A stretch of DNA of 64,000 bases from Peptococcaceae bacterium (GCA_017656185.1 JACDOK010000009.1:1227-65226); one strand, 5' to 3'. Positions 5,908-44,393 are shown, counted from the stretch's first letter. Notes: generated by a model not told the origin, from the sequence alone. Program-made: numbers and translations.

Positions 5908-8040
5908 CTAAGAGGAAACTCGTGCGTACCGCAAGGTTCTGGTAGCATTGAAAATAGCTATTAATGCCACGCCCACGTCCGCAAAGACGGCTTCCCACAG
6001 GGTAGCTAAGCCCAGTACTCCCAGTGCAACGAACAGGCCTTTAACCCCGAGTGCGAATACGATATTTTGGGTCACGATCTTTCTGGTGTAGCGGGCTATT
6101 TGAATGGCTTTGGCCAGTTTGCTCGGGCTATCGTCCATCAGCACCACATCGGCGGCTTCAATCGCCGCATCCGACCCCAGGGCTCCCATGGCTACGCCGA
6201 TATCGGCGCGGGTAATGACAGGAGCATCGTTAATTCCGTCACCCACGAAAACTAATTTGGCATCATTATTGGTACGCAGGTCTTTTTCTATTTCTTCGAC
6301 CTTAGAGACCTTATCCTGGGGCAGCAGTTCGGCGAAATAGGTATCCACGCCTACTGCTTGCGCGACCCTGGCGGCGACGTTTTTATCATCTCCGGTCAGC
6401 ATTACCGTTTGCTTTACTCCCAGTTTCTTCAACTGCGCCAAAGCTTGGGCCGTGTCTTCCTTGATTTCGTCCGCGATGATAAGATAGCCGGCAAAAACAC
6501 CGTCAACAGCAACATAAACTACCGTTCCCGCCACGTCACAATCGTCATGCTTCACCCCTTCTACGTGCAGCAGCCGGTCGTTTCCGGCCAGAATCGTCTT
6601 TCCCCCGACAGTCGCTTTGACGCCGTGGCCCTTAATCTCCTGGTACTCTTTCACTTTCCCGGGGTCGACCTCACCTTTATAAGCTTCCAGCACGGATTTG
6701 GCAATGGGATGGCTGGAGTGCACCTCGGCCATTGCCGCCCAGCGCAGAACCTCGTCTTCCGTGAAGCCGTTCTTGGTCACCACACGGGAAACCTTGAAAA
6801 CTCCCTTGGTAAGGGTCCCCGTCTTGTCGAAAACGGCCGTGTGTACCCGGGTCAGGGCGTCCAGGAAGTTGGCACCCTTGACCAATATACCGGCACGTGA
6901 TGCCCCTCCAACGCCCCCGAAGTATCCTAACGGTATGGAAATAACCAGGGCACAGGGGCAGGAGATCACCAAAAGGATCAGCGCCCGGTAAATCCATTCG
7001 GCAAAAGTAGCCTGCGGAATTACCAGCGGCGGTACAATCGCCACCGCCACAGCACCAAAGACTACAGCCGGGGTATACCAGCCGGCAAACCTGGTGATAA
7101 ACTTTTCCGTGGGGGCTTTTCTGCTGGCAGCGTTTTCTACCAGTTCGAGAATCTTAGAAACGGACGATTCTTTAAATTTCCTGGTGACTTTGACTTTTAA
7201 AAGACCGCTCCCATTGATTACGCCCGAAAGAATTTCTTCTCCCGGTTCCACTCTGCGGGGTATCGATTCCCCGGTCAGTGCGGAAGTATCTACAAAAGAG
7301 CTTCCTTCCACCACTACACCATCCAGTGGTACCTTCTCTCCCGGTTTGACTTCGATGAGCTGTCCAACGGTTACCTCTTCAGGAGATACTTTCCGGCTTT
7401 TTCCGTCTATGACCAGGTTGGCGCAATCGGGACGTACGTCCATTAAAGCAGAAATAGAACGGCGAGAACAGTTGACTGCCAGGTCCTGGAAGAACTCACC
7501 CACGGCGAAGAACAGCATTACACCTACGGCTTCCGGTATCTGGTGAATGGCTATAGCCCCTGCCGTAGCAACGGTCAGTAAAAAGTTTTCATCAAAGACC
7601 TGACCGCGGCGGATATTCTTAACGGCCTTCCATACCACCGGGCCTCCTACGAGAAGATAGGCTGACATAAATACCATGTATTCTCCGAAAGCATAAGGTG
7701 TATTGTGCAGAACCTGCTTAAAAATCATACCCCCTATAAACAATAAAGTGGTAGCAATAATTCTAATCAGATGGCGCTTGGAATTTTCATTTTCTTCCTC
7801 TATACTGGGCCGGTTCCCTGGCTTGCCGGCTTCTTCAGCAGGAAGCAGCTTCACACCCGGTTCAATTCTATTAATGATCTCTTGCGCCTTTGCTTCAAAT
7901 TCAGGGTCGAGCGTGGCAGCCCGGGTAGCAAAATTCACACTGGCGTTGCTTAAGCCCTCAACCTTATTCAATTCTCGCTCTATCTTTGCTGCGCAATTGG
8001 CACAATCGAGCCCCTCCAGAATATACTTCATATATGGCAC
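5908..8040 (-). CDS. cadA: Heavy-metal translocating P1B-type ATPase (Cd/Zn/Pb type)
   Basis: 710 aa. N-terminal HMA GLDCANC, transmembrane CPC motif (VISCPCAL), DKTGTLT phosphorylation site, GDGINDAP. Confidence 0.85.
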   Translation of the reverse strand: MPYMKYILEGLDCANCAAKIERELNKVEGLSNASVNFATRAATLDPEFEAKAQEIINRIEPGVKLLPAEEAGKPGNRPSIEEENENSKRHLIRIIATTLLFIGGMIFKQVLHNTPYAFGEYMVFMSAYLLVGGPVVWKAVKNIRRGQVFDENFLLTVATAGAIAIHQIPEAVGVMLFFAVGEFFQDLAVNCSRRSISALMDVRPDCANLVIDGKSRKVSPEEVTVGQLIEVKPGEKVPLDGVVVEGSSFVDTSALTGESIPRRVEPGEEILSGVINGSGLLKVKVTRKFKESSVSKILELVENAASRKAPTEKFITRFAGWYTPAVVFGAVAVAIVPPLVIPQATFAEWIYRALILLVISCPCALVISIPLGYFGGVGGASRAGILVKGANFLDALTRVHTAVFDKTGTLTKGVFKVSRVVTKNGFTEDEVLRWAAMAEVHSSHPIAKSVLEAYKGEVDPGKVKEYQEIKGHGVKATVGGKTILAGNDRLLHVEGVKHDDCDVAGTVVYVAVDGVFAGYLIIADEIKEDTAQALAQLKKLGVKQTVMLTGDDKNVAARVAQAVGVDTYFAELLPQDKVSKVEEIEKDLRTNNDAKLVFVGDGINDAPVITRADIGVAMGALGSDAAIEAADVVLMDDSPSKLAKAIQIARYTRKIVTQNIVFALGVKGLFVALGVLGLATLWEAVFADVGVALIAIFNATRTLRYARVSS

Positions 8041-8096
8041 CTCTTAATCTATAAATCTTTGCGCTTAACAGGGTAGAGTCCGAGGGTATATATTGC

Positions 8097-8456
8097 CTAT
8101 CCGTGTCGAACATGATCCAACATTTGTTCAAAAAGCAAAATTATGTGTTCATCGTCTATGGAATAATAGACATTCTTCCCTTCTTTACGGTATTTGACCA
8201 ATCTGGCACCTCTTAGTACACGCAATTGGTGAGAAATGGCGGAAATGCTCTGGCCAACTACTGCTGACAATTCACAAACGCATAATTCTTTTTGCAGTAA
8301 AGCGTAAAGGATCTTGATCCTGGTCCGGTCACCGAGAACCTTAAAGGTCTCTGCCATGCGTACCGCTTCACCGTCGGGCAGCATCTTTTCTTTGACTTGT
8401 TTTACGGTTTCACCGTCAACACAAAAGGCCTGGCAGGTATCATTTCTTGTCTTCAA
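8097..8456 (-). CDS. cadC: ArsR/SmtB-family metal-sensing repressor (CadC-like)
   Basis: 119 aa. ELCVCEL plus HTH ISHQLRVLR. Immediately upstream of the P-type ATPase on the same strand. Confidence 0.7.
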   Translation of the reverse strand: MKTRNDTCQAFCVDGETVKQVKEKMLPDGEAVRMAETFKVLGDRTRIKILYALLQKELCVCELSAVVGQSISAISHQLRVLRGARLVKYRKEGKNVYYSIDDEHIILLFEQMLDHVRHG

Positions 8457-8483
8457 GATAAACCTCCTTACATATCCATATCA

Positions 8484-8505
8484 TGAATATTTGAATAGAT
8501 ATTCA
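8484..8505. promoter_or_regulatory. Candidate ArsR/SmtB operator (TGAATAT-N8-ATATTCA inverted repeat)
   Basis: A 7-bp perfect inverted repeat ~30 bp upstream of the cadC start. It resembles the TGAA/TTCA-type operators of this family (from memory). Confidence 0.35.
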
Positions 8506-8746
8506 ATTGTTTGATGATAATTCTAATGGCTTAATGACATTAAGTCAATGATGAATAAAAAAAATTTCCATACTTTGGGTAAAAAGGGCTTGACTCCTTA
8601 TTCCCCTACCACCGGGACAAGTGATGGCGTTTTCTTTGTGAAATTTCTGGATACTAACGTGGAGGTCATAAAAGATTACAGTTGGTAAGCTGGTACGGGC
8701 CACTCTTAAAGAGGGATGGTAAAAATTTTAGGCCCTGCCAAAATGG

Positions 8747-11609: not shown

Positions 11610-12332
11610 CTAAGCCGTGCCCAGGCGGATTTTTTCGGCAAACTCATTCGGCAGAACAGGGTCCCGCTCAATCAGGCGGGCCGTGGCCTCTACGTCGTAT
11701 GGAACCTCAATAAAACTCACGCCAAGCCTGTTCTGGTCAAAATCGAGGACAGCGTAGACGGCGTTGGGGTTGCCTTGTTTGGGTTTACCCACGCTTCCCA
11801 CATTGACGACATGCTTGTCACCGATCTGCCGGTGGTAGGGTAGGTGGGTATGGCCGCAGACCAGGACGTCGGCCTGGACTTCCGCAAGACATTCTTTAAA
11901 GACGTCCTCCGGTGTATCCGCGTAAAGGTACTCGTTCAGGCGGCGCGGGCTGCCGTGCACGACGGTGACCCGGCGGCCCTGGACGGTAAACCTAATTTCG
12001 AAGGGAAGTTCCCGCAGGTAGGCCTTGTTGTCCTTGCTGGTGGTACGGGAAGTAAATTCTATCGAACGCTCCGCGAGTTTCATTTCTTTTTCGTCCTTGT
12101 AGTCGCAACCGCAGATCAGACGATCATTGCCGATGGCATCATCATAGTTGCCCATCACGGTGGGGATTTTTGTTTTCCGCAGGAGGTCGATTACCTCATC
12201 GGGGTGCGGCCCGTAGCCCACCAGGTCGCCGGCGCAGTAGACGCCATTAACGTCTTGGTAAGCGATATGGTCCAGAACGGCCTGCAGGGCATAGTAGTTA
12301 CTGTGTACGTCGGCGAATACAGCTATTCTCAT
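11610..12332 (-). CDS. Metallophosphoesterase (YfcE/MJ0936-like)
   Basis: 240 aa. Calcineurin-like motifs: MRIAVFADVHSN, GDLVGYGP, GNYD, GHTH. Confidence 0.75.
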   Translation of the reverse strand: MRIAVFADVHSNYYALQAVLDHIAYQDVNGVYCAGDLVGYGPHPDEVIDLLRKTKIPTVMGNYDDAIGNDRLICGCDYKDEKEMKLAERSIEFTSRTTSKDNKAYLRELPFEIRFTVQGRRVTVVHGSPRRLNEYLYADTPEDVFKECLAEVQADVLVCGHTHLPYHRQIGDKHVVNVGSVGKPKQGNPNAVYAVLDFDQNRLGVSFIEVPYDVEATARLIERDPVLPNEFAEKIRLGTA

Positions 12333-12449: not shown

Positions 12450-13271
12450 TTAGGGTTTAACGGCACTAATAAACGTACTTGTAATCGCCCCGTTGTATTC
12501 CCTGCGGGCGGCCTCTGAGATACCGGGCATCAAGGACTGGCCCTCCGGTGTGTCCAAGTCATAAACGCGCACGGTTTTAAGATCTATATCGACAAAGCCT
12601 GCCTGCTTCAGCAGGTCCTTGCACTCCTCCTCCAGGAGTGCCCCGGCCACTCACCCGGCCCAAGCTTCAGGGTCGTCCTTAACTTTTGCGGGGAGAGGAC
12701 GTTTCAGGACCACGTCGCTGACGGCGATACGACCGCCGGGCCGAAGGACGCGGAAGACTTCTTCGAAAACTTTCTTTTTGTCGGGTGCCAGGTTAACGAC
12801 GCAGTTGGAGATTACAACATCGACAGAGTTATCCGGTAGGGGGATGTCGGCCAGGTCTCCTTTTAGGAAGGTAACGTTGCCAAGGCCGGACTCGGCTAAG
12901 TTTTTCTTGGCCAGTGCCAGCATTTCGTCGGTCATGTCCAGGCCGTATACATACCCCTCCGGTCCTACAGACTGCGCGGCGAGAAAGCAGTCAATACCCC
13001 CGCCGCTCCCGAGATCCAGGACGATTTCACCCTCCTTTAAGGCTGCCAAAGCGGTAGGATTGCCGCAGCCAAGAGACGCGAAAGCAGATTTGCCTGGCAG
13101 CAGTCTGACTTGTTCACTACTGTAATGCCCTATGCCAAATAAGTCATTGCTGCCGGTACAGCAATCAGGACTACAGCCGCAGGAAGACGGTCCCTTATCG
13201 GCCTGCAAGGCGGCACGGGCATAGTGCTCACGGACAATGCGGGTGATGTCCTTTTTAGTGTCATGCGGCAT
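12450..13271 (-). CDS. arsM: Arsenite S-adenosylmethionine methyltransferase ArsM, probable selenoprotein (in-frame TGA at 12651-12653 read as Sec)
   Basis: ORFs 12651-13304 and 12450-12650 are one reading frame split only by a TGA. The sequence reads ..DPEAWAG-TGA-VAGALLEEE.. The SAM motif LDLGSGGG, ISNCVVNL and N-terminal CGCSPDCC are present. Likely ATG at 13271 with RBS AAGGAAGGGG. Confidence 0.75.
12621..12641 (-). promoter_or_regulatory. SECIS-like hairpin (GCACUCCU-GGAGG-AGGAGUGC)
   Basis: A perfect 8-bp stem with a G-rich 5-nt loop. The stem begins 12 nt after the U of the in-frame UGA and the apical loop lies ~20 nt downstream. Confidence 0.6.
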
Positions 13272-13300
13272 TCGGTGAACCCCTTCCTTAAAGAAAATGT

Positions 13301-13678
13301 TCAATTGTTTTCATCTGTCCGGCAGGCCTTCCGGCACCGCGCAACCACCTCGGAATCTGGCAGTTTTTCAAATCTGGCCGCTTCTTCGGAAAACCCGGGG
13401 ATTTTTTCGAGGGGAGTCTGCATCACTTGCTGCAATGAGGCAAATAAGCCGTCTATGGCACCAGACACGAGGGAATAAAAACTCCAGAGTTTGACCTTGC
13501 GTTCCCGGATGAACCCGGCGAGGCGGAGCACCTTTAAGTGCTGTGACACACGGGGCTGGCTCATCCGCAAAATTTCGGCGATTTCACACACACAAAGTTC
13601 TTTTTTATGCAGCAGGCGTAGGATTTTCAGGCGGGTCGGCTCCGCGAGAGCTTTGAACCTGTCGGCAATGTCCTTCAT
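13301..13678 (-). CDS. arsR: ArsR-family arsenic-responsive repressor
   Basis: 125 aa. ELCVCEIAEIL (As(III)-binding Cys pair) plus HTH VSQHLKVLR. Directly upstream of arsM. Confidence 0.85.
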   Translation of the reverse strand: MKDIADRFKALAEPTRLKILRLLHKKELCVCEIAEILRMSQPRVSQHLKVLRLAGFIRERKVKLWSFYSLVSGAIDGLFASLQQVMQTPLEKIPGFSEEAARFEKLPDSEVVARCRKACRTDENN

Positions 13679-13959: not shown

Positions 13960-15024
13960 ATGGATTATCTTTTCAAAGTACTGCTGAGCGGGTATCACGA
14001 AATCCTGGAGTACCTGTCGGCCCACGTTCTGACTTGTTTGGTACCGGCATTCTTTATTGCCGGGGGCATCGCGGTCGTGGTTTCCACGGGTGCGGTTTTA
14101 AAGTATTTCGGTCCCACCACCAAAAAGTACATTTCTTACGGGGTGGCCTCGGTTTCGGGGACCGTCCTGGCGGTGTGCTCCTGCACGGTGCTGCCCCTTT
14201 TCGCGGGCATATACCGTAAAGGAGCCGGGCTCGGTCCCGCCGTAACCTTCCTGTTTGCCGGGCCGGCCATTAACCTTCTTGCCATCGTTCTCACGGCCCG
14301 TAAACTCGGGTTTGATCTGGGTGCCGGGCGGGCCATCGGCGCCGTCTTGTTTTCAATTATCATCGGCTTAATTATGGCCGCTGTTTTTCGCAAAGAAGAA
14401 CAAGCAAAGGCACAGGCGGCGGAAAGTGCTTCCGGTTTTGCAGCCGGTATTGATGATGAGGGTAAGCCTGCCGGCCAATTGCTGGCCTTTTTCGGTATCC
14501 AGGTGGCCATCCTGGTGATCGGCACTGCCCAGGTAACTCTTGTTACCAAGCTGGGGGTTATCGTAGCTCTGTTGGTAGCACTGGGTGTGGTCCTGGTCAA
14601 GTGGTTCAGTAAGGAAGAAGTAAAGGACTGGTTGATAGAAACCTTCAAGCTTGTCAAGCTCATTTTCCCCATCCTATTGGTAGGTGTATTTGTGGCCGGT
14701 GCCTTAAAGGTAATCATCCCCGAACAGTGGATCGCGGCCTCGGTGGGCGGCAACGGCATCCTGGCCAACCTTATAGCGTCCGTGGTAGGGGCCTTGATGT
14801 ACTTTTCGACCCTTACCGAGGTGCCCATTGTCAAAATGCTTGTTGACCTGGGCATGGGGCGGGGCCCCGCGCTGGCGCTCTTGCTAGCCGGCCCGGCTCT
14901 GAGCCTGCCCAACATGCTCGTAGTGCGGAACGTAATAGGCACGAAAAAGACCCTGGTATACGTCGGCACTGTAGTGTTAACGGCTACTGTTGTCGGTTAT
15001 CTTTTCGGTTGGTTGGTAGGTTAA
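13960..15024 (+). CDS. DUF318/ArsP-type permease (putative organoarsenical or related efflux permease)
   Basis: 354 aa polytopic membrane protein with a VCSCTVLP vicinal-Cys motif. It has the usual partner, a small thioredoxin-like protein, downstream. Confidence 0.8.
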   Translation: MDYLFKVLLSGYHEILEYLSAHVLTCLVPAFFIAGGIAVVVSTGAVLKYFGPTTKKYISYGVASVSGTVLAVCSCTVLPLFAGIYRKGAGLGPAVTFLFAGPAINLLAIVLTARKLGFDLGAGRAIGAVLFSIIIGLIMAAVFRKEEQAKAQAAESASGFAAGIDDEGKPAGQLLAFFGIQVAILVIGTAQVTLVTKLGVIVALLVALGVVLVKWFSKEEVKDWLIETFKLVKLIFPILLVGVFVAGALKVIIPEQWIAASVGGNGILANLIASVVGALMYFSTLTEVPIVKMLVDLGMGRGPALALLLAGPALSLPNMLVVRNVIGTKKTLVYVGTVVLTATVVGYLFGWLVG

Positions 15025-15187: not shown

Positions 15188-15427
15188 ATGGATATAAAGA
15201 TCCTAGGTCCCGGGTGCAGAAAGTGCAAGGCCCTTGAAAAAGAAGTTCGGGAAGTTGTCAGCGAGATGGGCATTGAGGCGAACATTGAAAAAGTTACCGA
15301 TGTCAACGAAATCACCAGCTACAACGTTTTTATGACCCCCGGCTTGGTGGTTAACGGCAAAGTGCTGGTGTCCGGGCGTGTACCCAAGCGTGACGAAATC
15401 AAGAAATGGCTCCAGGAGGAAGCTTAA
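15188..15427 (+). CDS. Thioredoxin-family small redox-active disulfide protein
   Basis: 79 aa. MDIKILGPGCRKCK (CxxC). This family typically follows DUF318 permeases in ars loci. Confidence 0.8.
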   Translation: MDIKILGPGCRKCKALEKEVREVVSEMGIEANIEKVTDVNEITSYNVFMTPGLVVNGKVLVSGRVPKRDEIKKWLQEEA

Positions 15428-15508: not shown

Positions 15509-15753
15509 GTGTGTCTCGGCATTCCCGGCAAGGTGATCAGGGTGAACCCGGCGGATAAATTGGCGGTGATCGAAGTGTTCGGGGTAAAACGCCGGGTAAA
15601 TACGGCCCTGCTCGACGAAGTAGCACTGGGTGACTATCTCAGGTGCATACCGGCTACGCTATCGAGAAACTGGACCTGGATGAGGCCAAGGAACGCCTTA
15701 AACTGTGGCACGAGATTCTCAGCCAAGAAACGGCACTGCCACAAGAAGGATAG
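15509..15753 (+). pseudogene. hypC: hypC/hupF-family [NiFe]-hydrogenase maturation chaperone with a frameshift near 15641-15643
   Basis: The N-terminus (M)CLGIPGKV..GDYL is in frame 1. The continuation VHTGYAIEKLDLDEAKERLKLWHEIL..* is in the +1 frame, with 2 nt (ag) between the segments where one codon is expected. Confidence 0.7.
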
Positions 15754-15913
15754 CAAAAGCTTGGACTGCTGAAGACGGTGAATGTAGCCATACCTCAAGC
15801 GGGGTGTGGGTGAGGCTAGGTATGGCATGATCTAAGCATTTTGGGGACTGGTCCTTTTTACTAAGAGTTGGTAATGATGGTGATGGTTGTGTTTTTAGTA
15901 GGAGGGATAAATC

Positions 15914-16987
15914 GTGGGGGAATCAGTTACTCGCAAACTATCTTTTCTTGACCGGTATTTAACTCTTTGGATTATTCTGGCCATGGTCGCCGGCCTGGGC
16001 TGGGGGTACGTGTACCCGCAAATTGCCGATTTCTGGGGCCGGTTTCAGGTGGGCACGACCAACATTTCTATTGCCATCGGCCTCATCCTGATGATGTACC
16101 CGCCGCTGGCCAAAGTTCACTATGAAGAACTGCCTACCGTCTTCAACGATAAAAGACTGTTAGGTTTTTCCTTGGTTCAAAACTGGATCGTGGGCCCGAT
16201 AGTGATGTTTATCCTTGCCGTACTGCTTTTAGCGGATAAGCCGGATTTAATGACCGGGGTAATCCTGGTGGGTCTAGCCCGCTGCATTGCCATGGTACTG
16301 GTATGGAACGACCTGGCCGGCGGCAGCCCGGAATACGTGACCGGCCTGGTGGCTTTTAACGCTATTTTCCAGGTGCTTACCTATTCTATTTATGCCTATA
16401 TCTTCCTGACAGTTGTTCCCGCCTGGTTCGGTTTGTCCAGCGTCATCGTCGATGTCTCCATGGGCGAAATTGCCAAGAGCGTTTTCATTTACCTTGGCAT
16501 ACCCTTTATAGCTGCTTATATTACCCGTGCCGTGTTGGTCAAGTCAAGGGGACGCGACTGGTACGAGCAGAACTTTACCCCCAGGATCAGCCGCATTACG
16601 TTGATAGCTTTGCTGTTTACCGTTTTAGTAATGTTCTCCCTTAAGGGCGAAATGATTTTAACGGTGCCGCTTGATGTAGTTCGCGTGGTTATTCCGCTGA
16701 CGATATACTTTGTTTTTATGTGGCTGGTCACCTTTTTCCTGGGCAAGTGGATCGGTGCCGATTACCCCAGGAACACCACGATTTCTTTTACCGCCGCCAG
16801 CAACGACTTCGAGCTGGCGATCGCCGTAGCAGTGGCGGTTTTCGGTATCCATTCTGCGCAGGCGTTTGCCACTGTTATCGGTCCCCTCGTGGAAGTGCCT
16901 GTCCTCCTGGCCCTGGTAAACGTGGCCCTGTATTTCAAGAGGAAATATTACGGAGGCGATATCCAACGTGCCGACAAAATAGCATAA
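15914..16987 (+). CDS. acr3: Arsenite efflux transporter, ACR3 family
   Basis: 357 aa. [12 protein letters not shown].. and a 10-TM profile typical of ACR3. GTG start with RBS GGAGGG. Confidence 0.9.
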
Positions 16988-22724: not shown

Positions 22725-23861
22725 GTGTTAAAAATGATTAGTAGGAATAAATTTTCCCGGGTTTTTCAAAAGCATGGTTCGCATTCCGGCGTTACTGCAA
22801 GGTTAGGTACAAGTTTGCTGTCAAAAGGGAAAAGAAACCGCCTCCCCGTTATCTGGCTGGGTACCAATACCTGCGCCGGGGACAGCATTTCTCTTCTAAA
22901 TTCTCTTGACCCGGGCTACCGGGCTATAATTTCAGATTTGATTGATTTGCGCTATTATCACTTTGGCATGCCCGCAGAGGGGGATAAATCCACCGGGGTA
23001 CTGGAGGATACTTTAGCTGAACGCCCCGGGGAATATGTTTTAATTGTGGAGGGCACCATTCCTACTCGCTCCAACGGCCTGTACTGCGTCATCGGTAACC
23101 GCCGCGGGAAACCTTTCACCGCCCTGGATGCAGTGCAGGAACTGGGCGCAGCGGCGCGTTACGTGGTGGCGGTGGGGACCTGCGCTTCTTTTGGAGGTCC
23201 TTATGCTGCTCACCCCAACCCTTCTGACGGCAAAGCCGTCCATAAAGTACTGGACAGGCAGGTAATCAACGTGCCGGGTTGCCCGGCGCACCCCGATTGG
23301 ATTGTGGGCACACTGGCGCATTTGGTGTGGTACGGGGAACCCGAGCTGGACGAATATAACCGTCCCACTTTGTTTTACGGGGAGACTATCCATAACTTGT
23401 GCCAGCGCAGGCATTATTTTGACAGCGGTATCTTTTCCGCCCATCCTGGGGAGCCCTGGTGCATGTATAAAGCAGGCTGCAAGGGGCCGGTAACCTTTGC
23501 CGATTGCCCTTACCGCCAGTGGAACGGGGAGCATCTGAACTGGCCCGTCAAGGCCAATACGCCCTGCATAGGCTGCGTCAGCCCGGAATTTCCCGACCAT
23601 ACCGAACCCTTTTTTGAACACCTGCCGGATATCCATTTACCCCAGGTAACTGTCAATGCCAATCGCGTGGGCGCTGTAACGGGTGTTTTAACCGCCATAG
23701 GTATCGGCGGGCATTTGGTGGCCAGTATTATCAAGGGTAGATTACCCAAGACTCTCAAGAAAGGTTTCTCCCCGGCCAAACCGGGGATAGAGATACTTCA
23801 AACCACCCCCGCCCAAATTTTAGTAGATAGTATTAAGAAAATGTTGAAGAAGAAACGTTAA
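22725..23861 (+). CDS. [NiFe] hydrogenase small subunit (divergent; C-terminal TM anchor, no RR signal seen)
   Basis: 378 aa. VIWLGTNTCAGDSISLL, GTCASFGG, PGCPAHPD, CIGC. C-terminal hydrophobic helix VTGVLTAIGIGGHLVASII. Confidence 0.85.
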   Translation: MLKMISRNKFSRVFQKHGSHSGVTARLGTSLLSKGKRNRLPVIWLGTNTCAGDSISLLNSLDPGYRAIISDLIDLRYYHFGMPAEGDKSTGVLEDTLAERPGEYVLIVEGTIPTRSNGLYCVIGNRRGKPFTALDAVQELGAAARYVVAVGTCASFGGPYAAHPNPSDGKAVHKVLDRQVINVPGCPAHPDWIVGTLAHLVWYGEPELDEYNRPTLFYGETIHNLCQRRHYFDSGIFSAHPGEPWCMYKAGCKGPVTFADCPYRQWNGEHLNWPVKANTPCIGCVSPEFPDHTEPFFEHLPDIHLPQVTVNANRVGAVTGVLTAIGIGGHLVASIIKGRLPKTLKKGFSPAKPGIEILQTTPAQILVDSIKKMLKKKR

Positions 23862-23874
23862 AGGACTGGCTGGT

Positions 23875-25284
23875 ATGAAGAAGATCATCATCAACCCGGT
23901 TACACGTTCAAACAGCCCTTTTGTGGTGGAGGTAACGGTTTCAGAGGGAAAAGTGGTGGATACCAAATGTAGCTGCCAGTTTTTCCGGGGTTTTGAATTA
24001 ATATTGCAAAATCGGGATCCCCGGGATGCCTGTTACCTCACCGAACGTGTTTGCGGTATCTGCTCCTCGGCTCACGGTATGGCGGCAGCCTTTGCCCTGG
24101 AGAATGCCGCGGGCGTACGACCTCCGTACAACGGAAATATATTGCGCAATCTAATTTTGGGTGCCGACCTGTTACAGAACCACATCCGGCATTTTTACTT
24201 TTTAAGCCTGTCTGACTATGTGAAGGGTCCCGACTTGCCCCCCTTTGTTCCCAGCTATAAAAAAGACTTTCGGCTATCCAAGAAGGCTAACGAGGCCATG
24301 CTGCAAAACTATTATGAGGCTTTGGAAATAGGCAGGTTGGCCCATGAACTGATGGCTCTACTGGGGGCTAAGGCACCCTTTCCGCATAGCATCCTGGCCG
24401 GGGGCAGTACTGTGGCTCCAACTGTCGATGTGATCATAGATTTTTATTATAAGTTAAAAAAAATCAATGACTTTATTCAAAACAAGATGATTCCCGATGT
24501 ACATACCCTGGCCGAGACCTATGCCGATTATTTTGAAATCGGTAATAGGAATGCCAATATGCTGGACTTCGGCCTGTTTCCTAAAGATGAACATGACCGG
24601 GAACGATATTTTCCTGCAGGCCTGGCGCTGGAAGGGCGGGTGCAGGAGGTTGACCTAAAGCCTATTAAGGAAGATTTAAGTTACTCCTGGTATGCTGATA
24701 AAGGTGTTCCTCAAGATCCATATACGGAAGAAACTGTACCTGACCGGGAGAAGGATGGGGCTTATTCCTGGGTTAAGGCCCCTCGTTATAACGGGAAGGC
24801 TGTAGAGGGGGGGCCCTTAGCCCGGTCCTGGATCAGGGGGGACTACCGCCGGGGTGTTTCTGTCATGGACCGGATCATGGCCCGGGTGCTGGAAACGGAA
24901 CTGGTGGGGCGGTTGATGGAGGGCTGGCTGGAAGAACTGCGTCCTGGTGAACCCGTATTCAAGCCTTTTGCCATCCCCCAGGAAGCGGAAGGGGCAGGCC
25001 TTACCGGCGCCATGCGCGGGCCCCTGGGGCACTGGCTGCGCATTGAAAAGGGGAAAATCGCCCACTACCAGATAATTACTCCGACCGCGTGGAATATGTC
25101 CCCCCAGGACGCTACAGGTCAGCCCGGACCAATGGAAGAAGCCTTGCTGGGTACCCCCGTGGCCGATGCAAACGAGCCCGTGGAGATCAGCCGGTTGGTC
25201 CGGTCTTTCGACCCTTGCTCTGCCTGTGCCACCCATATAATAATACCCGGCGCGCCGGTACGGGAATTTATTATTTGTGTTTAA
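23875..25284 (+). CDS. [NiFe] hydrogenase large subunit (divergent, 469 aa)
   Basis: L1 motif RVCGICSSAH and C-terminal DPCSACATH. The N-terminus reads NPVTRSNSPF where RIEGH is usual. Confidence 0.9.
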   Translation: MKKIIINPVTRSNSPFVVEVTVSEGKVVDTKCSCQFFRGFELILQNRDPRDACYLTERVCGICSSAHGMAAAFALENAAGVRPPYNGNILRNLILGADLLQNHIRHFYFLSLSDYVKGPDLPPFVPSYKKDFRLSKKANEAMLQNYYEALEIGRLAHELMALLGAKAPFPHSILAGGSTVAPTVDVIIDFYYKLKKINDFIQNKMIPDVHTLAETYADYFEIGNRNANMLDFGLFPKDEHDRERYFPAGLALEGRVQEVDLKPIKEDLSYSWYADKGVPQDPYTEETVPDREKDGAYSWVKAPRYNGKAVEGGPLARSWIRGDYRRGVSVMDRIMARVLETELVGRLMEGWLEELRPGEPVFKPFAIPQEAEGAGLTGAMRGPLGHWLRIEKGKIAHYQIITPTAWNMSPQDATGQPGPMEEALLGTPVADANEPVEISRLVRSFDPCSACATHIIIPGAPVREFIICV

Positions 25285-25305
25285 CTACATTGGGGTGTTA
25301 ATTCG

Positions 25306-25926
25306 TTGAAATTCAAGAATAATTTGCTGGGCATAAGGCTAAAAGGGGTAAAAACTTTCCGCCATTCCTGGCCTATCAGGGTGTTGCATTGGGTGCTGGC
25401 ACCGTCTTTTCTGATACTCGTGGCCAGTGGGTTATATATACATAAACCCTCACGGGTCTGGGGTTTTCGCAGTATGGATTCGGCACGAAAAGCCCATTTT
25501 ATTGCCCAGTATTTTTTTGGCTTTTATTTCTTAGCCCGGGCTTATTATGCCGTGGTAACCAGGGATTACCGTAAAATTTTCCCTGGGGTAAAGGATATTA
25601 TTGCTTTGCCAAAATTCGTGGCCTACGAGTTGTTTTTGAAAAAGAAAAAGCCCAAATATCCCAGGTATAATCCCGGGCAGAAGTTACTGTATTCCCAGAT
25701 GGCATTGCTTTTTCCCCTGCAGATAATTACCGGGGCAGTCCTGTATTTAACCGGCAAGTTGCAAAAACTAAGCCGCTTTTTCGGTGGTCTGAATAATGTT
25801 CGCTTGGCACATTATCTAACTACGGTTGGATTGTCAAGTATGGTGGCAGGGCATATCTATTTTGCTTTAACAGACAGTGTGGAAAAACTCAAGTCAATTT
25901 TCACCGGTTATTTTAAACCAAAGTAA
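25306..25926 (+). CDS. Ni/Fe-hydrogenase b-type cytochrome subunit
   Basis: 206 aa, 4 TM segments, His-containing helices (IRVLHWV.., AHYLT..GHIYF). TTG start. Confidence 0.8.
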   Translation: MKFKNNLLGIRLKGVKTFRHSWPIRVLHWVLAPSFLILVASGLYIHKPSRVWGFRSMDSARKAHFIAQYFFGFYFLARAYYAVVTRDYRKIFPGVKDIIALPKFVAYELFLKKKKPKYPRYNPGQKLLYSQMALLFPLQIITGAVLYLTGKLQKLSRFFGGLNNVRLAHYLTTVGLSSMVAGHIYFALTDSVEKLKSIFTGYFKPK

Positions 25927-25979
25927 ATAAGGATAAGAGAAGGTCATCCCCATATAACTACATACGGGAAGGGATAATC

Positions 25980-26474
25980 GTGACAAAAATTGCCGTAATC
26001 GGCCTGGGTAATCCTCTGCTCAAGGACGACGGTATCGGCCCTCGGGTTATTCGGGAATTACAAAAAAGTGACTTGCCTCCCTGGGTGAAGGCTGTTGAAG
26101 CGGGAGGTTCTTTTTATTACTACTGGGATCTACTGCTGAATTGCCGTTATGTTATTGCCGTTGATAGCATGCTGGGGGGCGGCTTACCGGGATCCGTTTA
26201 CCTGGTTACTCCTGAGCAAATAGCGGGGTCGGAACCGGTCCCGGGGCTGCGGCACGAAGTACATTTTCTGGACGTCCTGAAAATGGTGTCTTTTTACGGC
26301 GCCAGGCCACAAGTTACTATAATCGGTGTGGAACCTAAAGAGATTACCTATTCTACCGAACTTTCCATGGAAATCGCTGAGAAAATCCCGGCGATTACCG
26401 GGATTGTCCGCCAACTATGCCAGTCATTTAATCCTTCACCGATGGCTATTATCAACAAAACAGTGGTAAGATAG
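25980..26474 (+). CDS. Hydrogenase maturation endopeptidase (HyaD/HybD family)
   Basis: 164 aa. VIGLGNPLLKDDGIGPRV is the signature N-terminus. Confidence 0.85.
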   Translation: MTKIAVIGLGNPLLKDDGIGPRVIRELQKSDLPPWVKAVEAGGSFYYYWDLLLNCRYVIAVDSMLGGGLPGSVYLVTPEQIAGSEPVPGLRHEVHFLDVLKMVSFYGARPQVTIIGVEPKEITYSTELSMEIAEKIPAITGIVRQLCQSFNPSPMAIINKTVVR

Positions 26475-42824: not shown

Positions 42825-44385
42825 TTGAGCTTAAAGCAGCAGGCCAGCCAGGGCTCAGAGATAAACGAGCGCCTGGCGGCCTTAATGACCAATGCCAATG
42901 CCATCCGGGCCATTGCCTCCGCGGTGGAAGGTACCCTTGGGCCTAAGGGGCTGGACACAATGCTTGTGGACCAGTTCGGTGATGTAGTTATCACCAATGA
43001 CGGGGTAACCATTCTTACCCGCATGGAGGCCACCCACCCGGCGGCGCGTATGATGATCAACATTGCGCGGGCCCAGGAAGAGGAAGTGGGCGACGGTACC
43101 ACTACGGCTACGGTCATGACCGGGCAAATGGTGCAGACTGGTGTTGACCTTGTGGCTAAGGGGGTTCCTGTAGCCCGTGTCATCGAAGGTTTGCGTCTGG
43201 GGTTGAAGCATGCCCTTGATTTGATGGAACGGGAAGCGCAGGCCGTAAACGGGCTCGACGATCCCCGTGTACGCCAGGTAGCTTTGGTGGCCGGGCGTGA
43301 GCACGGGGATATTGCCGATTTGGTAGTACAGGCGGCCAAGTTGGTAGGAGAGGAAAAACTACGGGACTCCTTTTTTAAATTGTCTGATACGGTAGAGGCG
43401 CGGGAAAACGCCCAAAACGTCGTATTTGAGGGTGTAATTATTAACAAGACACCGGTAAACCGGCAGATGCCCCGCCGGGTTGAAAATACAGCCGTGCTGG
43501 TCCTGGACGATGCCCTGGAACCCGAAGAGATCGAAGACGAGGCCCTGGCGACAGAAGCCGGGTTCAGCCGTTACCTGCAACTCCAGAAAGAATTTAAAAG
43601 CAACTTGCATAAATTGGTCGAACTGGGCGTAGGATTGGTGCTGGTGGACCGTAGCGTAGCGGACAGTGCCGAGGAGATTCTTACCGATGCCGGCATAATG
43701 GTGGTCCAACGGGTATTAAATAAGGAACTGCGCAAAGCAGCGGAGCACACCGGAGCGCGCATGTTAAAACGTACGGGTTTGAAGAAAAATAAGGAAGAAC
43801 TGGCCCGTTATCTCGGGCGCGCGCGTTTCGTGGTGTACGACGAAAAGCTGGAACAGGTTTGGATCCGGGAAGGTGCCGGCAAGCCTATGGCCACGATACT
43901 GGTAGGAGCCGCTACCGAAGAGGTGGTCGGTGAGAGGGAGCGTATTGCCAGAGATGCCGCCGGTGCGGTACAGGCCGCCGTGAAAGGTGGTGTGGTGCCG
44001 GGAGGCGGTTCACTCGAGCTTTGGATAGCCCGTGAAGTGGAAAAAATACGTGAAAACGTCCGAGGCATGTCCGGGCACGGTGTGGCCTGCGTAGTGGAAG
44101 CCCTGAAACGCCCGCTGGCACAGATTGTGGAGAATGCGGGATTTAACGCCTTGGAGAAAATCGGTGATGTTATCGCCGCCCAATCCGAAAGCGGCAATAA
44201 GGCCCTGGGCATAGACTGTGACAGCGGTGAAGTGCGTGACATGTTGGAGGCCGGCGTGGTGGATCCCGCACCGGTCAAGATTTACGCCTTGAGAGCGGCG
44301 GGGGAAATCGCCGAAGCTATTCTGCGGATTGACACCATTATCAAAAAGCGGGATGAAAGACACGAGAGTAAGGGGGCAACAGGTG

Positions 44386-44393
<8 letters not shown>
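42825..44393 (+). CDS. Thermosome/TCP-1-type (archaeal-like) chaperonin encoded inside the dnaK operon
   Basis: 522 aa. GTLGPKGLDTMLV, ITNDGVTIL, EVGDGTTTATV (group II chaperonin signatures). TTG start with RBS AAGGAGG. Confidence 0.88.

Follow-up and report, generated by a model that had tools for sequence, protein, structure and literature searches.

The question raised by this locus is whether a TGA codon that interrupts an arsenite methyltransferase gene (arsM) ends translation, results from an error, or specifies selenocysteine (Sec). The window, by which we mean the whole stretch of 64,000 nucleotides (64 kb) that was analysed, belongs to a Peptococcaceae MAG, and the host is an anaerobe that forms spores and possesses CODH and a NiFe hydrogenase. 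Two ORFs on the minus strand (12651..13304 and 12450..12650) abut in the same frame, and the TGA at 12653-12651 is the sole separator between them. Read through this codon, they give an arsM coding sequence (12450..13271, minus strand) of 273 codons plus a TAA stop, in which codon 207 is the single in-frame UGA; counted from the ATG at 13271, the layout is 206 codons, TGA, 66 codons and TAA. This ATG, with the upstream ribosome-binding site AAGGAAGGGG, is most likely the start of the gene, and a TTG at 13304 is a less likely alternative. In automated gene calls the locus appears in two pieces, a truncated product of 206 aa (P0001) and an orphan ORF of 66 aa.

The read-through protein, with Cys put at the position of the TGA, was compared with the NCBIfam and Pfam models. 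It matched the arsenite methyltransferase model NF008823 with 333.5 bits (cutoff 263), and as this match spans residues 5-273, both halves are parts of one protein. Pfam placed it in the class I SAM methyltransferases (Methyltransf_31, 5.3e-40; Methyltransf_11 and Methyltransf_25, both approximately 2e-24). The glycine-rich motif LDLGSGGG and the segment ISNCVVNL are both present, and the N-terminal Cys cluster, in which a counterpart of CmArsM Cys44 may lie, consists of C31, C33, C37 and C38; the alignment to solved structures covers residues 67-251. The first-pass annotation had described two abutting ORFs in one frame that are split by a TGA alone, and a complete ArsM with a Cys cluster, the two motifs above and the junction DPEAWAG-(TGA)-VAGALLEEE. 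The ORF coordinates and the translation bore out the first description, and all of the elements named in the second were found in the 273-aa product.

The position of the TGA within the protein was determined by alignment to solved relatives, the best of which are the CmArsM structures 4kw7 and 4fr0 (1.4e-33, residues 67-251). In the phmmer alignment the TGA codon pairs exactly with Cys224 of CmArsM (GEC-LGGAL), Cys174 (NCVCNL) pairs with Cys157 of the window protein (ISNCV), and Cys72 (GCG) pairs with Cys69 (LGCGNP). The first reading of the sequence had placed the TGA at a conserved As(III)-binding Cys, and the check agrees with it, the column being that of the As(III) ligand Cys224 of CmArsM. 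The in-frame UGA (12651..12653, minus strand), predicted to encode Sec207, lies in the motif AWAG-U-VAG, which has the form UxxG. TGA is the terminator of 7 of the 36 confident genes in the window, indicating that the standard code is used and that TGA has no general sense meaning in this organism.

A codon of this kind could also arise if a Cys codon, TGC or TGT, had mutated to TGA in a decaying gene, or had been misread as TGA during sequencing or assembly. The window does come from a metagenome-assembled genome, the automated call for the gene is the truncated 206-aa product, and no Sec machinery is visible within the 64 kb. Such an error would nevertheless have had to fall exactly on the catalytic Cys column, and to recur in the relatives of the window. 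Closest to the window protein in the protein collection were four distinct orthologues (P0002, P0012, P0064 and P0121, from loci L085, L081, L084 and L206, respectively), all of them truncated and ending in ...AW(A/T/S)G, with 65-74% identity to the window protein as measured over the part before the TGA. The truncated entries for the window gene and for three of these four orthologues are without a name in the collection. These four and the window make up the clade discussed below, for which DNA was taken from loci L081-L085 and L206. TGA was found at the same column in all four orthologues, from independent samples and assemblies, and P0012 was identical in three independent samples. The frame behind the TGA was open and conserved in each of the four (66-78 aa, ending in ...A(R/V/T)KP), and the TGA is followed by a hairpin with strongly non-random codon choice. 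That the TGA is conserved already goes most of the way to refuting an error or a pseudogene, and we consider either to be extremely unlikely.

Cys-form homologues were used as a control set. Eighty of these were obtained by a scan of reference-genome contigs with the TGA-clade alignment as query, a scan that returned nothing but Cys forms, because tblastn ranking favours uninterrupted matches. The column was found in 72 of the 80 fetched sequences, as TGC in 60 and as TGT in 12. The first-pass annotation had proposed a check on relatives, and its outcome was favourable: the four orthologues keep the TGA, the open conserved frame and the hairpin, and the distant homologues have TGC or TGT without the hairpin.

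The codon after the TGA bears on a further explanation, namely a split gene in which translation does end at the TGA, with a 206-aa fragment followed by a 66-aa piece that is translated by re-initiation at GTG (UGAGUG). In the window and L085 the TGA is indeed immediately followed by GTG, and the ORF finder lists the 66-aa ORF there; however, the codon at this place is ATT or ATC, unusual as starts, in L081, L084 and L206, and a ribosome-binding site ahead of the GTG is absent. A split would deprive the protein of an As(III) ligand and break it midway through a helix that runs uninterrupted in CmArsM, and it leaves unexplained both the conserved hairpin and the fact that the break always falls at the Cys224 codon. 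We therefore give a split gene very little probability.

The hairpin itself was then compared with known bacterial SECIS (bSECIS) elements. The segment GCACTCCT-GGAGG-AGGAGTGC at 12641..12621 can form a stem that begins 9 nt past the TGA, with the apical loop 17 nt past it; this SECIS-like hairpin, GCACUCCU-GGAGG-AGGAGUGC (12621..12641, minus strand), has an 8-bp stem and a 5-nt loop. The first-pass annotation was right about the 8-bp stem and the GGAGG loop, but not about their distance from the UGA, having placed the stem at 12 nt and the loop at approximately 20 nt. The 54 nt from the UGA onwards fold at -24.4 kcal/mol (z = -2.3), and 4 of 200 dinucleotide shuffles were as stable. According to the published rules, a bSECIS has a loop of 3-9 nt, a stem of 4-16 bp, a G in the first two loop positions, a loop that begins 16-37 nt past the UGA, and an MFE of -7.5 kcal/mol or lower (2026 review, PMC13188914). 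The window hairpin, with its GGAGG loop (GG first), 8 bp, 17 nt and -14.8 kcal/mol, lies within every one of these constraints, so that the geometry does fit a bacterial SECIS as had been supposed.

A hairpin was found on the same codons (A-L-L ... E-C/Y) in all five members of the clade, with a local MFE of -14.8 kcal/mol in the window, -12.1 in L085, -13.1 in L206, -6.1 in L084 and -5.7 in L081. In the 72 Cys forms, the corresponding 27 nt had a mean of -4.0 kcal/mol (sd 2.6, minimum -12.0), with one of the 72 reaching -12, and the window hairpin was more stable than the matching segment in all 72. In two members, L081 and L084, the hairpin does not reach the limit of -7.5 kcal/mol and falls inside the range of the Cys forms, which is a weakness of the SECIS reading. 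When synonymous codons were resampled for the peptide of each clade member, using the codon usage of the window, the recodings that reached the observed stability amounted to 0.3% for the window and to 1.0%, 0.1%, 3% and 19% for the others. That few synonymous recodings are as stable indicates a codon choice biased towards structure. A Cys-form arsM from a Desulfosporosinus sp. MAG (L009) is a natural control for the hairpin: it encodes the near-identical peptide C-VGGALLEEEY with AU-rich codons, and it has no hairpin at this place (-2.8 kcal/mol).

Compensatory covariation was sought in the stem core CUCC/GGAG and none was found, the core being invariant within the clade. Rfam searches at gathering and permissive thresholds returned nothing relevant, and so did not lend the hairpin independent support. 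A second small hairpin adjoins the SECIS-like one on its 3' side, CCUGC-UGAA-GCAGG (12602..12615, minus strand), which is part of the MFE fold. Among the four members folded that far (the window, L081, L084 and L085), it is formed by the window and L085 only, and is thus an element of uncertain role that the clade does not conserve.

The window was also searched for Sec machinery. ARAGORN detected no tRNA genes in the 64 kb, so there is no tRNA-Sec there, and NCBIfam scans of the long ORFs revealed no selA, selB or selD within the window. That they are missing from the window counts against the Sec reading, and would suit a UGA that is read through without selenium, by a near-cognate tRNA (Trp, Cys or Arg) at low efficiency, perhaps with the aid of the hairpin. 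Downstream hairpins can stimulate the read-through of stop codons, which is a point in favour of this explanation. Against it, Sec/Cys exchange is recognised by just such a UGA at a catalytic Cys, the hairpin conforms to the SECIS rules, among them those for the G that opens the loop and for the spacing from UGA to loop, and ArsM with UxxG is already catalogued as a selenoprotein. Furthermore, a leaky stop at an essential ligand would soon become TGC, and the TGA has been kept among orthologues that are 65-74% identical. Read-through without selenium is accordingly regarded as highly improbable.

We conclude that the gene very probably encodes a Sec-containing ArsM in which the UGA at codon 207 is read as Sec, a reading drawn from comparisons of sequence. 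The hairpin 9 nt past the UGA, with its 8-bp stem and GGAGG loop, would act as a bacterial SECIS as the ribosome nears the UGA. It would recruit SelB-GTP-Sec-tRNA(Sec), and Sec would be inserted in place of termination, as in the standard bacterial pathway. Sec insertion, the binding of SelB, the existence of Sec genes outside the window and the activity of the enzyme are inferred, with the ars locus (arsR, acr3) as supporting context for the methylation of As(III). The predicted Sec207 would replace Cys224 of CmArsM, which corresponds to Cys206 of human AS3MT and Cys207 of mouse AS3MT, and together with Cys157 (Cys174 in CmArsM) it would bind As(III) in the active site. One Se and at least one S would then hold the arsenite, with SAM as the methyl donor. 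Such a naturally occurring Se ligand for As(III) would be of chemical interest.

A Sec-containing ArsM is not new. Arsenite methyltransferase is listed as a bacterial selenoprotein in reviews of 2022 and 2026 (NF008823/PRK11873, WP_011987699.1), and the latter gives the motif UxxG for it and places the family under 'experimentally verified'. Both reviews cite Fomenko et al. (2007, Science 315:387) as their source for selenoprotein ArsM, and Peng et al. (2016) counted 41 'Arsenite S-adenosylmethyltransferase' selenoproteins in 39 organisms. The suggestion in the first-pass annotation that methyltransferase selenoproteins already appear in surveys is therefore correct, and extends to ArsM at the UxxG site. 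By the source that the reviews cite, knowledge of both family and site dates from 2007, and the window gene is of a known kind and no discovery. The catalogued Sec-ArsM proteins share with it the NF008823 family, the U-V-A-G motif, one Sec where the second As(III)-binding Cys would stand, and a SECIS within the coding sequence just after the UGA. Nothing substantive differs between them and the window, which belongs to a small Peptococcaceae-type clade in which the window and two of its four relatives share the order arsR-arsM-metallophosphoesterase.

Compared with the eukaryotic enzymes, the window protein shares the SAM-binding fold of CmArsM and AS3MT, and the As(III)-binding residues Cys72, Cys174 and Cys224 of CmArsM correspond to its Cys69, Cys157 and predicted U207. 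In mouse AS3MT, Cys157 and Cys207 have been proposed as active-site residues. CmArsM and AS3MT differ from the window protein in having Cys at 224, in their length (370-390 aa, as opposed to 273 aa), and in a long C-terminal domain that is absent in the window protein. NCBIfam has models for fusion selenoproteins (Haft and Tolstoy 2025), ArsM/AhpD (NF041537), ArsM/DUF2284 (NF041536) and methyltransferase/UXPK-star (NF047649), with a UxxG Sec listed for all three. Against these models the window ArsM scored 193, 163 and 170 bits (cutoffs 510, 575 and 460, respectively), which reflects the homologous methyltransferase domain. The fusion proteins have a second domain and a second Sec, whereas the window ArsM has a single domain and a single TGA.

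A scan of metagenomes with the DNA pattern around the TGA gave at least 120 loci (L086-L205). The TGA was in frame in all matches listed, and among the matches listed the downstream frames that did not end at a contig edge were all approximately 70 residues or more. With the exception of L132 and L135, these loci (for example, L089:5058-5105 and L093:3198-3245) form a large soil-metagenome family that resembles the window gene in having the TGA at the same column, the motif AWAG-U-(V/I)AGAL, a hairpin a few codons further on, and a downstream frame of 72-78 aa. Unlike the window protein, the four full-length members that were read through do not have the equivalents of Cys72 (GVGNP) and Cys174 (ISNGV), and the N-terminal Cys cluster is absent in the three members with a complete N-terminus. 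Two members scanned against NF008823 scored 251 and 231 bits, under the cutoff of 263. These loci were thus rejected as Sec-ArsM, since, going by the members read and scanned, most are without three of the four cysteines and fall under the family cutoff; the soil-metagenome family probably does not consist of strict arsenite methyltransferases. L132, which scored 343.7 bits on NF008823, is on its sequence a genuine Sec-ArsM of another lineage.

The hairpin of the soil-metagenome family, GNCGGAG-CGUGW-CUUCGNC, lies 5 nt farther from the UGA than the window hairpin and has the loop CGUGW. Among the 72 distinct sequences in the matches listed, it has one fully covarying pair (A-U in 20, G-C in 20, C-G in 18 and G-U in 14). 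This shows that ArsM-type selenoproteins in general have a SECIS at this position.

The genes around arsM belong to arsenic resistance. Directly upstream is arsR, encoding an ArsR/SmtB metalloregulator (13301..13678, minus strand; NF033788, 2.7e-28). The ArsR protein carries ELCVCE, which presumably resembles the As(III)-binding ELCVCDL motif of the R773 ArsR. Divergent from arsM is the gene for a permease (13960..15024, plus strand) of the SaoE / SO_0444-like efflux family, in its Cys form, which matched NF040736 (1.1e-32) and NF033936 (1.3e-31), in both cases under the cutoff; it is the 'permease [Peptococcaceae bacterium]' of GenBank (MBO8128511.1). An ACR3 arsenite efflux transporter follows (15914..16987, plus strand; TIGR00832, 1e-131, 439 bits, cutoff 283), and its presence marks the region as an arsenic-resistance locus. 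Between the permease gene and acr3, two plus-strand genes were identified by eye, one for a thioredoxin-like 79-aa protein in its Cys form (GPGCRKC; 15188-15427) and one a HypC-like ORF that begins MCLGIPGKV (15509-15772). Expression of arsM would probably be from an arsenic-responsive arsR-arsM-phosphoesterase operon beside the permease gene and acr3.

The phosphoesterase gene, directly downstream of arsM, encodes a YfcE-type metallophosphoesterase (11610..12332, minus strand; TIGR00040, 1.1e-17) and is probably part of the arsM operon. The order arsR, TGA-containing arsM, metallophosphoesterase was also found in L081-L084, that is, in two of the four relatives (P0012, in three samples, and P0064), where a 240-aa Metallophos gene lies 3' of the TGA-type arsM (for example, L081:10840-11562 and L084:6857-7579). 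To our knowledge, YfcE-type metallophosphoesterases have no known role in arsenic metabolism. The two genes might form an undescribed arsenic-transforming module, or Sec might shift the substrate range or affinity of the enzyme, but we regard these ideas as unlikely; a module, if real, could for instance couple the hydrolysis of arsenate or methylarsenate esters to Se-assisted methylation.

The main value of the present locus lies in the correction of its annotation, and it also illustrates cleanly how codon choice can maintain a SECIS. Because gene callers split arsM into pieces of 206 and 66 aa, both arsenic methylation and selenium use will be under-counted in MAGs of anaerobic Firmicutes. 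The window adds one small clade with a clear SECIS to a known family, and it opens no new question.

The remainder of the window was inspected for further selenoprotein genes as a proxy for the Sec trait, and no second one was seen, which counts against the Sec reading. Other in-frame-TGA ORF pairs returned by a mechanical scan were set aside; each of them overlaps a confident gene that lies on the opposite strand or in a different frame. Three families with known Sec forms are present as Cys forms, namely the NiFe hydrogenase large subunit, a P-type ATPase and the permease. A gene beside fdhD was considered as a putative FdhA and rejected, as it encodes the P-type ATPase, and no formate dehydrogenase catalytic subunit adjoins fdhD. 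This ATPase is of the CadA/ZntA type (5908-8040, minus strand) with the Cys-form motif GLDCANC, and approximately 700 nt without a long ORF (8040-8745) lie between its gene and fdhD. The hydrogenase operon (22725-26474, plus strand) encodes the small subunit, the large subunit, a cytochrome b and a protease; the large subunit is best matched by NiFeSe-type models (NF033181, 536 bits, cutoff 600) but has Cys (DPCSACATH). A gene for a thermosome-like chaperonin of the archaeal group II type (42825-44393, plus strand; TIGR02339, 3.8e-94, 316 bits, cutoff 671) is located between hrcA and grpE-dnaK-dnaJ, the DnaK of the window being MBO8128543.1.
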